From assembly GCF_041248615.1 (NCBI RefSeq), contig NZ_CP158426.1: 64,000 nt of DNA. One strand, given 5' to 3'. The notes beneath the pieces were generated by a model. It saw only the letters and a list, made by a program, of their open reading frames with translations, was not told the DNA's origin and did no database searches. Shown piece after piece: positions 50,756-55,980 of the stretch (positions are counted from its first letter, which is position 1; the number at the start of each line of letters is the position of its first letter). A program made the position numbers and the translations under genes. Source of the stretch: Escherichia coli. GTDB taxonomy: Bacteria; Pseudomonadota; Gammaproteobacteria; Enterobacterales; Enterobacteriaceae.

Positions 50756-50774
50756 GCAAATCATTCTCATTATC
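50756..50774. promoter_or_regulatory. Candidate Fur box upstream of iha (gcaaatcattctcattatc)
   Basis: Good match to the 3' two-thirds of the Fur consensus, ~50 bp upstream of the start. Confidence 0.6.
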
Positions 50775-50823
50775 TCTTGCGTTTGTTTATCTTCTCTCTG
50801 ATTAATATAATCGGAGAGAAGAT

Positions 50824-52911
50824 ATGCGAGTAACCACTCTGGCTTCAGTAGCCATCCCTTGTCTCGGGTTTTCAGTCAGCAGTATGGCTGCGGAAGATGT
50901 GATGGTAGTCACGGCGTCTGGCTATGAAAAAAAATTAACCAGTGCAGCTGCGAGTGTTTCAGTGATCAGCCAGGAGGATTTGCGATCCAGCCAGTATCAT
51001 GATCTGGGGGAGGCACTGAGATCCGTAGAGGGGGTGGATGTTGAAAGCGGTACGGGTAAAACAGGTGGGCTGGAAATCAGCATCCGCGGAATGCCTGCCA
51101 GTTATACGCTGATACTGATCGATGGTGTCCGTCAGGGCGGGAGCAGTGACGTAACCCCAAACGGTTATGCTGCCATGAATACGGGTTTTATGCCACCTCT
51201 GGCCGCCATCGAACGTATTGAGATTATCAGGGGCCCCATGTCCACTCTGTACGGCTCTGATGCCATGGGGGGCGTGGTGAATATCATCACCAAAAAGAAT
51301 GCAGACAAATGGCGCTCTTCGGTTAATGCCGGGCTGAACCTGCAGGAAAGTAACAAATGGGGGAACAGCAGCCAGTTTAATTTCTGGAGCAGCGGTCCCC
51401 TTGTGGATGATTCACTCAGCCTTCAGGTACGTGGCAGCACACAGCAGCGTCAGGGCTCATCGGTCACATCACTGAGCGACACCTCAGCTACGCGTATCCC
51501 TTATCCCACGGAATCACAGAATTATAATGCAGGTGGTCGTCTTGACTGGAAAGCGACGGACAAGGATGTACTCTGGATTGATATGGATATCGCCCGGCAG
51601 CGTTATGATAACCGAGATGGCCAGCTGGGCAGTCTGACGGGCGGTTATGATCGCACCCTGCGCTATGAGCGTAATAAAATTTCAGCAGGCTATGATCATA
51701 CATTCACCTTCGGAGCCTGGAAGTCATCCCTGAACTGGAATGAGACGGAAAATAAAGGCCGTCAGCTTGTACGTAGCGTACTGCAGCGTGATAAATGGGG
51801 GCTTGCCGGCCAGCCGAGGGAGCTTAAGGAGTCGAATCTTATCCTGAGCTCATTACTGTTTGCACCTCTGGGGGAATCACACAAGGTTACCGTCGGTGGT
51901 GAGTATCAGAACTCCTCCATGAAAGACGGGGTTGTTCTCGCCAGTACTGGTGAAACCTTCCGTCAGAAAAGCTGGTCGGCATTTGTTGAGGATGAGTGGT
52001 ATATCACGGATGCATTTGCACTGACTGCGGGTAGCCGCTATGAACGCTATGAGGTGTTCGGAGGACACTTCAGTCCCCGGGCATATATGGTCTGGGATGT
52101 GACTGATGCGTGGACGCTGAAAGGTGGGGTGACCACGGGATATAAGGCGCCCAGCATGGGGCAGTTACATAAGGGGATCAGCGGTGTGTCCGGTCAGGGG
52201 CGTACGAATCTTCTCGGTAACCCGGACCTGAAGCCGGAGGAGAGTGTCAGTTATGAAGCGGGCGTGTATTACGATAATCATGCCGGTCTGAACGCCAATA
52301 TCACGGGCTTTATGACAGAATTCTCCAACAAGATCGTATCTTATTCCATTGATGATAATACCCGCAGCTACACAAACAGCGGAAAGGCTAGGACTCAGGG
52401 CGTGGAATTTGCCGGCACACTGCCTCTGTTGTCAGAGGATGTGACTCTGTCTCTGAATTATACCTGGACGCAGAGTGAACAACGGGATGGGGATAATAAA
52501 GGTGCACCACTGAGTTACACCCCTGAGCATATGGTGAATGCGAAACTGAACTGGCAGATTACTGAAGAGGTGACATCATGGCTGGGTGCCCGTTACCGCG
52601 GGAAAACGCCACGTTTCACCCAGAATTATTCGTCACTCTCAGCTGTACAGAAGAAAGTGTATGATGAGAAAGGTGAATATCTGAAAGCCTGGACGGTACT
52701 GGATGCGGGCATGTCGTGGAAAGTGACGGATGCACTGATGCTGAATGCAGCGGTGAATAATGTGCTTAACAAGGATTACAGTGACGTAAGTCTGTATCGT
52801 GCCGGCAGTGGTACGCTTTATGCGGGTGATTACTTCCAGACGGGGGCATCGACAACGGGTTATGTGATACCTGAGAGAAATTACTGGATGTCGCTGAACT
52901 ATCAGTTCTGA
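50824..52911 (+). CDS. iha: TonB-dependent outer-membrane receptor/adhesin, Iha (IrgA-homologue) type
   Basis: 695 aa; signal peptide; TonB-box-like DVMVVTAS; C-terminal ...LNYQF. Confidence 0.8.
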   Translation: MRVTTLASVAIPCLGFSVSSMAAEDVMVVTASGYEKKLTSAAASVSVISQEDLRSSQYHDLGEALRSVEGVDVESGTGKTGGLEISIRGMPASYTLILIDGVRQGGSSDVTPNGYAAMNTGFMPPLAAIERIEIIRGPMSTLYGSDAMGGVVNIITKKNADKWRSSVNAGLNLQESNKWGNSSQFNFWSSGPLVDDSLSLQVRGSTQQRQGSSVTSLSDTSATRIPYPTESQNYNAGGRLDWKATDKDVLWIDMDIARQRYDNRDGQLGSLTGGYDRTLRYERNKISAGYDHTFTFGAWKSSLNWNETENKGRQLVRSVLQRDKWGLAGQPRELKESNLILSSLLFAPLGESHKVTVGGEYQNSSMKDGVVLASTGETFRQKSWSAFVEDEWYITDAFALTAGSRYERYEVFGGHFSPRAYMVWDVTDAWTLKGGVTTGYKAPSMGQLHKGISGVSGQGRTNLLGNPDLKPEESVSYEAGVYYDNHAGLNANITGFMTEFSNKIVSYSIDDNTRSYTNSGKARTQGVEFAGTLPLLSEDVTLSLNYTWTQSEQRDGDNKGAPLSYTPEHMVNAKLNWQITEEVTSWLGARYRGKTPRFTQNYSSLSAVQKKVYDEKGEYLKAWTVLDAGMSWKVTDALMLNAAVNNVLNKDYSDVSLYRAGSGTLYAGDYFQTGASTTGYVIPERNYWMSLNYQF

Positions 52912-53397
52912 TAACAACAAACCCGATATAACGCATTATAATACGTAAAGATGCTGCCTCTGTCACCTGAGGGCAGTGGCAGCAACACACGATGCAGGTG
53001 TTTGATCACCAGTGACCCGCCGTTTACTCCTTTAGTATGGCATACTTCTGTTGTCACCTGTGACCAGGCGCGCGACTCTGTAAACATCCGGATGTATGCG
53101 TTCTTCTGACAGTTAATATTACCGGCAGGTAGTTGACGATGTGTGGGCTTGTGACCGCATCCGGGTAATAAAGAAATAATCCGCCAGCGGCTTTTATTCT
53201 TATGGGCAGTAATTAAATACATCGCCATGTGGGTAAATATAAGTGACGGAATGAGAGTAACAAGTGATGCTGGAATTAAGATTTTGCTTTTTGCAGTGAT
53301 AGCCAGAGCCTTTTACAGAAATGTGGTATGAGGTGCATTTTTTACGCTCACATTATTGTTTTATTATCGGCGTCAACCAGTGATCAGGAGGTGCAAC

Positions 53398-53844: not shown

Positions 53845-54240
53845 ATGTACCGGATTTTCTGTTCCCTGTTTTTCCTGCCGCTGGCAGCGTCTGCCGGCAC
53901 AACAATTTATACCGATTCTCAGCATCTTCCCGTTAATCCTCCTGATGGTGTCAGGGTGGTTCTGCTGGATGCGCCTGAGCAGCTTCAGAGCCGCTTTTGG
54001 GGCCTGTTGCCTGCTGATGCGGGTGAGGCTGAATCGGTGGTCAGGGTACGTATGAAGTCTCCCGAATGGCAGACGATGCAGGCGGAACTGGCCGGTCATT
54101 ACCGCGATGTGGCACATGCCTAGTCGCTGGGCGTGAAGAAATACCCTGCCGTGGTGTTTGATGACAGTGAGGTGGTTTACGGCACCATGGATGTGGTGAT
54201 GGCCGGGAAAATCCGTGCTGAGGGAGGAGTGCAGCCATGA
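53845..54240 (+). pseudogene. ICE conjugation protein (thioredoxin-like, TIGR03757-type) with in-frame TAG stop
   Basis: Signal peptide, TDSQH... motif; stop at 54121 where the downstream ...SLGVKKYPAVVFDD... continues in frame. Confidence 0.55.
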
Positions 54241-55211
54241 TGTCCCTGAAATGTCGTCTGCGTACCGGCGTGCTGTTACTGAGTGTGGCATCACTGCCCC
54301 TGGCGTCTGTATCACTGAACACCGCCAGCATTATCGCCAGTACTGCGGCACCGGACTATATCAGCTGGCGTGTCAGCGGGATTTGTTACTGGCTTTACTG
54401 CAGCGCGTCTGGCTGTACGGTCAGAATTTCCGTGAAGGTGACACATTTCATCCCGGAAGTGGTTATTTCCACCTATACGGCACCGGGTGGTAATCCCTGG
54501 AAAGAGATGTCGCTGGTCAGCCGGACCGCAGGTGGCCCGGAGAATGCCATCACTGACGGCCTGTCCGGGCTGAGTGCCGGCGGGGGAAATCCGGCGGATA
54601 TGAAAATACAGGGGAAGCGCCGTTCAGCAATTCGTTTCAAATATGCAGATGCGCTGGGTCATCCGGCCACACAGCTTATCGGCGGGATGGTACCCGGATT
54701 CAGCTGTGATTCACCGGTGACACCGGCCATGGCCTATTTCCTCAGTACCCTGGACAGCATCGTCTAGCGAACGGGATTACCTGAATCCCTGTATCCAGAG
54801 GCACAGGTTCCCGGCAAACGCGAGATTGGCAGCTAGGCCGATAAAAACATGTGGGGGAGCGTTTATCACCGGAGTGGTTTTGTGATGCAGAGCGATGATG
54901 ACCGGGCCGCGGCGGTGGGGGCTCAGCGGGTGGCCGACATTATCACGCGGATGGGGGAGTCGCATGTCTACAGGGAGGTTAAGGGCGTGAAACGTGACGG
55001 CTACTGGCCCCCGGAGGCGGTGGAGGAAAACACCGGCACCCGCAATCACAAATGGCAGCGACTGACGCCGTCAGTGTCGCGTTCCTGTGCCGTTTTCCCG
55101 GATGGTGAACACCAGGCGGCGGAGAACGGTAATGCAGCCTTTGCACTGTGGCAGCCTTACAGCTGCTTCGAAAAGCGCGGGCAGCGATTCCTTGGCAGTA
55201 CGAATTTTTAA
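54237..55211 (+). pseudogene. ICE TraU-like protein split into two ORFs
   Basis: N-terminal GICYWLYCS TraU-like Cys motif; second half in ORF 54849-55211. Confidence 0.5.
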
Positions 55212-55217
55212 GGAACC

Positions 55218-55980
55218 ATGATGATGAAGATGAAAACAGGTATGGTGGCACTGAGTGTGATGCTGTACTGCAGTATTCCGGCGATGGCTGATCTTCTTTC
55301 CCTGCCGAAACTGAATGACAGCACGTTCGGTTACGGGAAATCCGTGGATGGCGCCGTATCCGACAAACTGTTCTATACGCTGGGTGGCGGCTCGGTGATC
55401 TCACAGTTGGCCACGCGCAGCAACATGCAGAAGCTGGGTATGGACCTGGGCTGGAGCAGCGATCTGATGTGCGGCAACTTTGACCTGAAGACCACGGTGG
55501 GTAATCATCTTAACGGATTGACCGACGGCTTTAAAAATCTGATGGGGGATGTGATTTAGGGGGCGACCGGCGCCGCTGCCAGTCTGCCGGCGATGGTGAT
55601 ACAGCGTGCCAACCCCGGCCTGTACGACATGATCACCAACGGTGTGCTGCAGGCGAATGTGGCTTTCGACAAGGCGTAACTGAACTGCCAGAACATGGCA
55701 AAACGGATGATGGACTTTTCTGATCGCAGCAAATGGACGCAGGCCAGCGATGCTGGAAGAGTACAAGAAGGTGGTGAACAGCGGTGACGGTGATGCGGTG
55801 AAAGGGGACGAGGCCGGACGTCAGGCCACCGGGAAGGAAGGTAAGAAATGGATTGGCGGGCAGCAGCGCGGCGGGGCAGGTCAGCCCGCCATCCGGCCGG
55901 TGCATGATCTGACAGCGGCTGGGTTTAACATGATGAACAGTCTGCCCGTGACCAGTACGGGAGGTTACGATAAAGCCGAC
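55218..55980 (+). pseudogene. ICE conjugal-transfer protein (TIGR03755-type) 5' part with stops, truncated by IS fragment
   Basis: Signal peptide ORF 55218-55559 followed by frameshifted continuation. Confidence 0.45.

Follow-up and report, generated by a model that had tools for sequence, protein, structure and literature searches.

We have analyzed an iha locus within a 64-kb stretch of Escherichia coli DNA, referred to here as the window. The host setting is a pathogenicity island that is crowded with decayed IS elements. An intact iha gene is followed by a short filler with a small glutaredoxin-like gene, the remains of three ICE conjugation genes, and part of an IS3-family element. The features are as follows.

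50710..52984, + strand: iha cassette, beginning at the promoter and ending at an imperfect inverted repeat past the stop codon; the block common to ICE-borne iha
50757..50775, + strand: Fur-box-like site GCAAATCATTCTCATTATC in the iha promoter, read from the sequence
50824..52911, + strand: iha, intact, 695 aa, TonB-dependent catecholate siderophore receptor and adhesin (NF010012; RefSeq WP_001266790.1)
52985..53753, + strand: lineage-specific filler of the cargo slot, 769 bp, without counterpart in intact ICEs
53398..53649, + strand: GrxA-like small protein, 83 aa, with CPSV replacing CPYC (weak GrxA profile match and profile alignment to Grx1)
53754..53844, + strand: conserved intergenic ICE backbone (homology to ICEs), upstream of TIGR03757 and serving as the right-hand boundary of the cargo slot
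53845..54240, + strand: TIGR03757/DUF1525 pseudogene with TAG at 54121 (ancestral TGG); RefSeq pseudogene, internal stop
54237..55211, + strand: TIGR03756/TraU pseudogene with TAG at 54765 (ancestral TGG) and 54834 (ancestral CAG); RefSeq pseudogene, internal stop
55221..55960, + strand: decayed 5′ half of a TIGR03755 gene, with TAG at 55557 (ancestral CAG), TAA at 55677 (ancestral CAA) and an additional A (+1) at 55746
55957..56383, + strand: frameshifted fragment of an IS3-family (IS2-like) element that starts inside the element and extends to its 3′ end, with a deletion joint to the ICE remnant

The iha gene is intact, as the first-pass annotation had stated. The protein scores 1538.7 bits against the profile for the bifunctional siderophore receptor/adhesin (NF010012, cutoff 924), the match covering residues 1–695 of 696, and it belongs to that equivalog family. 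The ratio ω is 0.14 in comparison with the allele of the TUM1887-type ICE (see below) and 0.08 in comparison with the O157 allele; iha is kept under purifying selection. A Fur-box-like site had been noted upstream of the gene and is indeed there. It matches the classical consensus by eye at 14 of 19 positions, and its putative core, AAATnATTCTCATTAT, is invariant in an alignment of four iha alleles that differ by 7–15%. Canonical iha is reportedly regulated by Fur. Presumably Iha still serves as an adhesin and as a TonB-dependent receptor for catecholates under Fur repression; both the Fur control and the present function are inferred.

Beyond the filler, the first-pass annotation had recognized three consecutive decayed ICE conjugation genes, and profile searches bear this out. 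The raw fragments already match TIGR03757 (a 92-aa fragment, 62 bits), TIGR03756 and TIGR03755. The repaired translations pass all three curated cutoffs, with 120 bits (cutoff 73.2) for TIGR03757, 378.2 bits (cutoff 188.35; profile positions 1–297 of 298) for TIGR03756, and 283.8 bits (cutoff 270.45) for TIGR03755, the last being a partial match that ends with the remnant at profile position 202 of 419. An intact homolog of the first gene matches PF07511 with 115 bits. That of the second matches Pfam TraU (PF06834) with 186 bits; a TraU-like Cys motif had been noted among the three genes. RefSeq already labels two of the three as pseudogenes, and annotates only the first 113 codons of the TIGR03755 remnant, as a "hypothetical protein".

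None of the three reading frames is uninterrupted. The remnants contain in total five nonsense codons, each created by one G:C>A:T transition, together with the +1 A frameshift and the truncation. All five stops trace to TGG, CAG or CAA in three intact ICEs; the TAG at 54121 in TIGR03757 is TGG in each of them. The middle gene had been described as disrupted by a single in-frame TAG, and this needs correction, as there are two. The window lineage has accumulated 59 derived substitutions, compared with 31 in the TUM lineage, and ω for the pseudogenes is 0.33–0.69, compared with 0.10–0.16 between intact copies. For TIGR03755 against that of the G1/2 element, protein-guided codon alignments replaced a nucleotide alignment in which indels had shifted the frame and made dN/dS artifactual. 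Constraint on the three pseudogenes is relaxed.

The right-hand end of the remnant is marked by the IS3-family fragment. This corresponds to profile positions 172–239 of IS2 TnpB (NF006918), i.e., only the C-terminal, integrase-core part, and falls short of a complete IS3 element, which would have two ends and an undamaged OrfAB. It is 89% identical to other IS3-family copies (query 1/3–429), and is annotated in RefSeq as an "integrase core domain" pseudogene lacking its N-terminus. Because an internal part of the IS is fused to an internal part of a gene, the junction at ~55957–55960 is to be read as a deletion joint rather than an IS terminus or a simple insertion. The earlier statement that the ICE was cut by an IS3-family fragment is to be qualified accordingly: the fragment does follow the remnant, yet what joins them is a deletion.

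Where is this arrangement of genes found in a living element? In ICEs at pheV that appear complete, iha has the position, order and orientation seen in the window; examples are those of TUM1887 (sequences L007, L002 and L011) and 2015C-3121 (L012). There the iha in the slot is flanked on one side by a VirB4-like conjugative ATPase gene and an ORF of 128 aa, and on the other by TIGR03757-TIGR03756-TIGR03755. The pheV ICE of TUM1887 (NZ_CP128963.1, ~800,068–892,583) is the closest living relative of the window locus, with iha in the same slot. Its iha cassette (L002 17345–19615) is 93.5% identical to that of the window (50710–52984), and the backbone of the window from 53765 to 55960 is 95.0% identical to it. 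From its gene content the TUM1887 ICE appears complete, with ParA, DnaB-PI, TraD, MPF genes, a type IV pilus cluster, TraI and an integrase. It differs from the window in having no Grx module in the slot, and it has a Tn7-like element with a class 2 integron. ICEs of this type are also present in AR_0089 and in many poultry isolates.

A second type is represented by ICEEc8 of the STEC O117:H7 strain FHI72 (Montero et al., 2019; PMC6455142), in which the position of iha in the identical slot has been published. Its ORF49–55 (Table S7 of that paper) have the order ATPase, small ORF, iha, TIGR03757, TIGR03756, TIGR03755, which is shared with the window locus, as is that of the ICEEc8-like element of 2015C-3121. 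Both elements integrate at pheV and are of the same ICE class as the window remnant, ICEEc8 being complete at ~86 kb where the window holds a remnant. They are more distant from the window than TUM1887, with ~79% identity in the backbone. The iha cassettes of the ICEEc8-like element and of O157 have nearly the same limits as that of the window and are ~85% identical to it. The position of iha within the intergenic gap seems to differ between the ICEEc8 and TUM types. In all the ICEs compared (G1/2, CH4811, TUM1887 and ICEEc8-like) homology to the backbone begins at exactly 53754. The slot is empty in G1/2, and contains other cargo in CH4811.

These comparisons indicate that the locus is, very probably, the fossil cargo slot of a pheV-type ICE of the SPI-7/PFGI-1/pKLC102 class that carried iha. 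It is a remnant rather than such an ICE, which would be expected to have att sites bounding a full set of genes for integrase, relaxase, coupling protein, VirB4-like ATPase and MPF. When the whole window was compared by blastn with the full TUM1887 ICE, matches were limited to the iha block and the 2.2-kb remnant; at this level there are no additional ICE remnants in the 64 kb (L007, L002 and L011), and the remaining T4SS genes are absent from it.

The 769-bp filler is specific to the lineage. It finds no match in the TUM1887 ICE (L002), where the slot has an unrelated 375 bp instead, and it occurs at full length only in the 59 genomes that share the region (see below). Among the intact ICEs examined, none has exactly iha plus the Grx filler in its slot. 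Within the filler lies a portable module of ~580 bp (53143–53721) that is 92.6% identical to contig L017, where neither iha nor ICE genes are found beside it. The module contains the GrxA-like gene, which is unannotated in RefSeq. Its start is most likely the ATG at 53398, giving 83 aa, rather than the TTG at 53356; AGGAGG lies 6 nt before this ATG, and so the strong RBS attributed to the small ORF is confirmed.

The GrxA-like protein is homologous to E. coli Grx1 (GrxA, PDB 1EGO/1GRX), with which its profile aligns from end to end (1EGO; E = 1.1e-6). The two have 83 and 85 residues, aligned from residue 1 to 71, and of Grx1 both the Cys-Pro of the N-terminal active site and the region around the cis-Pro are kept. 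However, it scores only 32.7 bits against GrxA (NF008401, cutoff 84) and lies outside that equivalog. In place of the CPYC dithiol active site it has CPSV, which is invariant in its family and lacks the resolving cysteine; further cysteines are conserved, and there is a PPxPGxPHxTYC tail at the C-terminus. An AlphaFold2 model, with a mean pLDDT of only 58, has a β-α-β-α-β order consistent with the thioredoxin/glutaredoxin fold. Relatives are few, with 8 profile matches among 1.84 billion representatives, the weakest of which are ordinary glutaredoxins with CPTC or CSYC; the family is tiny and restricted to a few island contexts of the E. coli type. In comparison with a paralog of the same length ω is 0.069, and the protein is probably functional, as far as can be judged from its conservation.

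Could this gene belong to the conjugation machinery, as ICE backbone or as a TrbB/DsbC-like helper of the T4SS? We rejected this, as none of the intact ICE slots examined contains it and the protein has no signal peptide. Elsewhere the gene is found without ICE genes, beside dolP/DoxX/yebF/sit, beside a catalase-peroxidase gene and sodC, or on L017. It is an independent, conserved accessory module under purifying selection. The first-pass annotation was thus correct in placing a Grx-like ORF beside the ICE genes, although it is not part of the ICE backbone.

Except for one, the lesions are in-frame point changes with the frames otherwise continuing, as might be expected if the stops were sequencing or assembly errors, or were read through to give functional conjugation proteins. 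Yet the region is matched at 99% identity or better by 59 complete genomes from different laboratories, NRZ14408 (NZ_LT599825.1) being 100% identical to the window. Direct inspection of SMS-3-5 and LH50-c, which are slightly diverged, shows four of the stops and the frameshift. Moreover TIGR03755 is both frameshifted and physically truncated at half its length, ω is relaxed, and the rest of the T4SS is missing from the window. The idea of error or readthrough retains essentially no probability, and is already refuted for practical purposes. Since SMS-3-5 and LH50-c still have CAG at 55557 while sharing the other stops and the frameshift, the TAG at that position is the last stop acquired. This stepwise accumulation also weighs against a targeted or selected inactivation, whether by deaminase-type hypermutation or by selection against orphan periplasmic T4SS components. 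All five stops are G:C>A:T transitions, and five nonsense codons exceed the 1.9 expected when the observed spectrum is placed randomly (P = 0.037). The excess is marginal, however, having been tested once and without correction, and TGG, CAG and CAA yield stops only through such transitions. The spectrum of the 59 derived changes is an ordinary AT-biased bacterial one, in which 10 of the changes are T>C and 14 are G:C>T:A transversions. Hypermutation was rejected as unsupported, and we regard any targeted inactivation as highly improbable.

A further explanation is that the adjacency is secondary, IS-driven shuffling in a mosaic island having joined iha to an unrelated ICE fragment, i.e., the gene was captured next to it. 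The island is full of decayed IS elements, the 769 bp separating iha from the backbone are in no intact ICE examined, and the dS of iha from the TUM allele (0.165) is about twice that of the backbone remnants (0.06–0.11). The greater divergence of iha implies that the direct parent was a different ICE variant, or that recombination has intervened. Against shuffling, the order, orientation and right-hand junction at 53754 are identical to those of iha-carrying ICEs, and the limits of the cassette nearly match theirs. The affinities of allele and backbone are congruent, the window grouping with TUM-type sequences, and O157 with those of the ICEEc8 type. No IS ends are present at the two inner junctions (52984/52985 and 53753/53754), and no mobile-element signatures in the form of inverted or direct repeats were seen at the ends of the iha cassette. 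We consider capture by shuffling improbable. The shared synteny and junction instead support the proposal that iha was delivered on an ICE that has since been pseudogenized.

If the locus is the fossil slot of such an ICE, its history may be proposed. Living relatives accept cargo, which in some ICEs is iha, in the intergenic gap that separates TIGR03757-TIGR03756(TraU)-TIGR03755 from the small ORF next to the VirB4-like ATPase gene. A TUM1887-type ICE carrying iha would have become fixed in the chromosomal island. Both flanks would then have been lost entirely, on the left up to the iha promoter and on the right from mid-TIGR03755 onward, in an order that is conjectural, the right-hand loss leaving the deletion joint with the IS3-family fragment. 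The three leftover mating-pair-formation genes, no longer being useful, would have decayed through the five nonsense mutations and the frameshift, 55557 coming last.

The canonical iha loci (the O157:H7 tellurite/adherence island OI-43/48, the UPEC sat-iha islands, LAA and pO113) have the same receptor/adhesin gene and Fur-box-like core, with an allele that is ~85% identical to that of the window in nucleotides and 90% in amino acids. This canonical iha is one fragment with fixed ends in ~1,400 of 5,426 complete genomes, including O157:H7, O104:H4 and ST131. Its loci lack T4SS gene remnants, and upstream of iha have only ~73–97 bp of ICEEc8-type intergenic backbone; even this is absent from pO113-type plasmid copies. 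Between the two ICE lineages, the dS of iha (0.67) is similar to that of the neighboring ATPase gene (0.69). There is perhaps an even chance that iha was ancestrally the cargo of one specific slot of SPI-7/pKLC102-class ICEs in E. coli, between the ATPase-following ORF and TIGR03757, and that all ICE-flanked copies in non-conjugative islands are fossils cut from such an ICE. If so, the window would be the best-preserved iha fossil, with 2.2 kb of right-hand backbone, where the canonical allele keeps ~73–97 bp on the left.

Most of this picture is already known from public annotation and the 2019 ICEEc8 paper (PMC6455142). ICE decay is an accepted route of island evolution, so no concept is changed; the finding is ordinary and its practical value modest. 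The annotation is corrected by a third pseudogene and the GrxA-like gene, and the ordered lesions are useful for typing. A cargo hotspot is revealed in the gap that separates TIGR03757 from the ATPase-linked ORF, and a diverged iha allele, found in poultry-associated isolates and in human ones such as SMS-3-5, is linked to a family of pheV ICEs that is still circulating. The locus provides a clean and datable case in which an ICE has decayed and left one of its genes in a pathogenicity island.

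We have studied the interval of the window in which an intact iha gene stands beside the remains of three consecutive genes from an integrative conjugative element (ICE). Unrepaired fragments match the profiles TIGR03757, TIGR03756 and TIGR03755. When the translations were repaired, with ancestral codons put back and the single extra base taken out, all three scored above the curated cut-offs, as the first-pass annotation of three consecutive ICE conjugation pseudogenes had implied. The features, in window positions, are as follows.

50710-52984: iha cassette, 93.5% identity to the ICE of E. 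coli TUM1887
50757-50775: Fur-box-like site GCAAATCATTCTCATTATC upstream of iha, by sequence resemblance
50824-52911: iha, intact, 1538.7 bits on the Iha equivalog NF010012 (cut-off 924)
53398 (ATG): GrxA-like small ORF of 83 aa, between iha and the ICE remnants, with AGGAGG six bases 5′ of the ATG
53765-55960: ICE backbone remnant, 95.0% identity to the TUM1887 ICE
TAG at 54121: TIGR03757, repaired score 120 bits (cut-off 73.2)
TAGs at 54765 and 54834: TIGR03756, repaired score 378.2 bits (cut-off 188.35)
TAG at 55557, TAA at 55677, inserted A (+1) at 55746, end at 55960: TIGR03755, repaired score 283.8 bits (cut-off 270.45) over profile positions 1-202 of 419 only
About 55957 to 56383: internal-to-3′ part of an IS3-family (IS2-like) element, 89% identity to other copies

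By the Pfam assignments of intact homologues the first gene is DUF1525 and the middle gene is TraU, in agreement with the TraU-like character proposed for the latter. The middle gene is indeed broken by an in-frame TAG; the stop is not single as claimed, since there are two. Each of the five stops in the remnant arose by one G:C>A:T transition; three intact ICEs share the original codons, which are TGG in two cases, CAG in two and CAA in one. In RefSeq, TIGR03757 and TIGR03756 are already marked as pseudogenes with internal stops, and the first 113 codons of TIGR03755 are labelled 'hypothetical protein'. The ICE had also been described as cut by an IS3-family fragment. The fragment adjoins the remnant, but because only its internal-to-3′ part is present, two truncated sequences are joined here, and the boundary is a deletion joint rather than an IS end. 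Immediately 3′ of the fragment, in a patch of 34% GC, lies a gene for an SgcJ/EcaC (SnoaL-like, DUF4440) protein with an apparent signal peptide (56578-57051), which is frameshifted in strain LH50-c.

Could the stop codons be assembly errors? The 5.2-kb interval has a match at ≥99% identity in 59 complete genomes, and among the matches listed most are 100% identical, from sources that include poultry, humans and a kite. The slightly diverged strains SMS-3-5 and LH50-c share four of the stops together with the frameshift. The lesions are thus not an artefact. Codon 55557 is still CAG in these two strains, so that the TAG there is the most recent lesion. With substitutions polarised by the ICE of G1/2 as outgroup, 59 derived changes fall on the window lineage and 31 on the TUM lineage; there is also one indel. 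The values of omega for the three remnants against the TUM1887 ICE are 0.69, 0.33 and 0.41, and those between intact copies of the genes are 0.10-0.16. The substitution spectrum is of the usual AT-biased type. Five nonsense changes were observed against 1.9 expected (P = 0.037), so that the case for more than neutral decay is only marginal.

The closest living relative of the remnant is an ICE at pheV in TUM1887, about 92 kb long and apparently complete, which about 25 other complete genomes also have. It encodes ParA, SPI-7-type DnaB, ParB, topoisomerase III and SSB; PilL, TraD, the TIGR037xx mating-pair-formation set and TraG-N; and a type IVB pilus cluster, a TraI-domain relaxase and a tyrosine recombinase. 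Its gene order is conjugative ATPase, 128-aa ORF, iha and TIGR03757-TIGR03756-TIGR03755, and it matches the window in exactly two blocks, the iha cassette and the backbone remnant. At its left end, by yghD, RefSeq gives a 78-nt 'tRNA-Ser' (L007 29991-30068, on the TUM1887 sequence) that is probably a mis-typed, att-derived partial copy; the right end has the true tRNA-Phe (pheV). This ICE also contains a Tn7-like transposon (TnsABCDE; L002 38929-42195 and L011 1-11285) with a class 2 integron (estX, sat2, aadA1, and intI2 with its usual internal stop), so that the iha-bearing element moves resistance genes as well. In several genomes, namely GF4 (NZ_CP172217.1, 401219-406443 and about 4256455), GF43, TUM9803, EC17CM2 and CM2, the decayed iha/ICE locus coexists with an intact TUM-type ICE, so that a single chromosome has two diverged copies of iha along with repeats that are 95% identical.

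Related ICEs differ in what lies between the small ORF after the ATPase and TIGR03757, which identifies this gap as a cargo slot. It is empty in G1/2 (265 bp). In CH4811 it contains DUF1187, a hypothetical gene and an AraC regulator, and in both TUM1887 and the 2015C-3121 ICEEc8-like element it contains iha. In every ICE variant the homology to the window backbone begins at 53754, and the right junction of the slot is thus preserved. The arrangement of iha in the slot is already published for ICEEc8 of STEC O117:H7, with ORF49 conjugative ATPase, ORF50 hypothetical, ORF52 Iha, ORF53 TIGR03757, ORF54 TIGR03756 and ORF55 ICE protein (PMC6455142, Table S7). Synteny with iha-bearing ICEs, the two-block match and the shared junction support the first of the two routes proposed, delivery of iha on an ICE since pseudogenised. 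In the 2015C-3121 element (L012 6918-9008) the annotation gives iha as a pseudogene broken by an internal stop, amid intact conjugation genes, the reverse of the window.

The iha alleles group as their backbones do, window with TUM type and O157 with ICEEc8 type. Between the two ICE lineages dS for iha is 0.67, near that of the neighbouring ATPase (0.69) and below that of TIGR03755-57 (0.94-1.05). Of 5,426 complete genomes, about 1,400, including O157:H7, O145, O103, O111, O104:H4 and ST131, have a canonical iha fragment with identical end points, corresponding to L012 6608-9079 in blastn or to query positions 220-2680 in megablast. The fragment starts about 73-85 bp left of the ICEEc8-type insertion point, in an intergenic stretch that runs on unbroken as backbone in the ICE whose slot is empty. 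This vestige of about 73-97 bp lies 5′ of the canonical cassette (6798-6883 in both L009 and L010, against L012 6608-6692 and L003 8898-8993) in the O157 TAI and UPEC sat-iha islands; copies on pO113-type plasmids start right of the junction and lack it. The position of the fragment ends suggests that the common iha allele, too, is an ICE fossil. However, the approximately 85 bp are common to the ICEEc8/G1/2 lineage only, and the direction of transfer is one that we infer by parsimony. In the TUM type, iha may occupy another point of the gap, as a weak match hints (66%, E = 3e-5); this would imply more than one insertion event.

The gene itself is intact, as first described, with omega of 0.08-0.14. 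The putative Fur box reported upstream is present, and its core AAATnATTCTCATTAT is unchanged across four iha alleles diverged by 7-15%.

The small Grx-like ORF with a strong ribosome-binding site was also borne out. It most plausibly starts at ATG 53398, as a paralogue has the same length, and it usually lacks RefSeq annotation. The protein (MRICVFGYKTCPSVHR...PPVPGQPHYTYC) scores 32.7 bits on the GrxA profile, under the 84-bit cut-off. Its family profile aligns over residues 1 to 71 with E. coli Grx1 (1EGO) at E = 1.1e-6, with CPSV at the site of the Grx1 CPYC. In an AlphaFold2 model the strands and helices follow the expected order, but the pLDDT is only 58. The family is tiny (13 clusters in 5.8 billion; 8 matches in 1.84 billion representatives). 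Against the same-length paralogue (70% nucleotide identity) omega is 0.069, which indicates a real gene. Relatives (L015 1391-6047, L016 and L005/L006 6812-8960) adjoin either dolP, DoxX, yebF and sitABCD, or a 723-aa catalase-peroxidase with Cu/Zn superoxide dismutase (sodC). sodC also occurs on the window's island (23172-23696), giving the neighbourhood a redox-stress flavour; a role in redox stress would be a guess from these neighbours. A copy of 53143-53721 (92.6% identity) lies on a contig lacking iha and ICE genes. These occurrences elsewhere indicate that the Grx-like gene is an independent accessory module filling the slot in this lineage.

The whole window is 100% identical to 2403672-2467671 of the NRZ14408 chromosome (NZ_LT599825.1). 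It forms part of a large mosaic pathogenicity island with dozens of decayed IS elements, carrying iucABCD-iutA, sitABCD, sodC, ibrAB-like genes, an extra amiC, iha and phoX. In the aerobactin operon (4456-12427) the identical RefSeq record annotates a frameshift in iucD (8867-10200), so that the strain may have a defect in aerobactin synthesis. An internal stop interrupts a group II intron reverse transcriptase/maturase (26269-27777), and many IS66, IS110, IS3, ISL3 and IS1 copies nearby have stops and frameshifts, indicating that the island as a whole is old and decayed. Two IS1414 (IS256-like) copies with identical transposase WP_072847535.1 (14961-16169 and 57100-58308), and a third, inverted, just past the window end, could serve as substrates for rearrangements that involve the iha segment.

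The original observation is thus confirmed with corrections, and its interpretation as an ICE-derived locus is supported. The phenomenon is largely visible in the RefSeq annotation and was anticipated by the ICEEc8 report; the locus is a textbook example of how an ICE decays to a pathogenicity-island segment.
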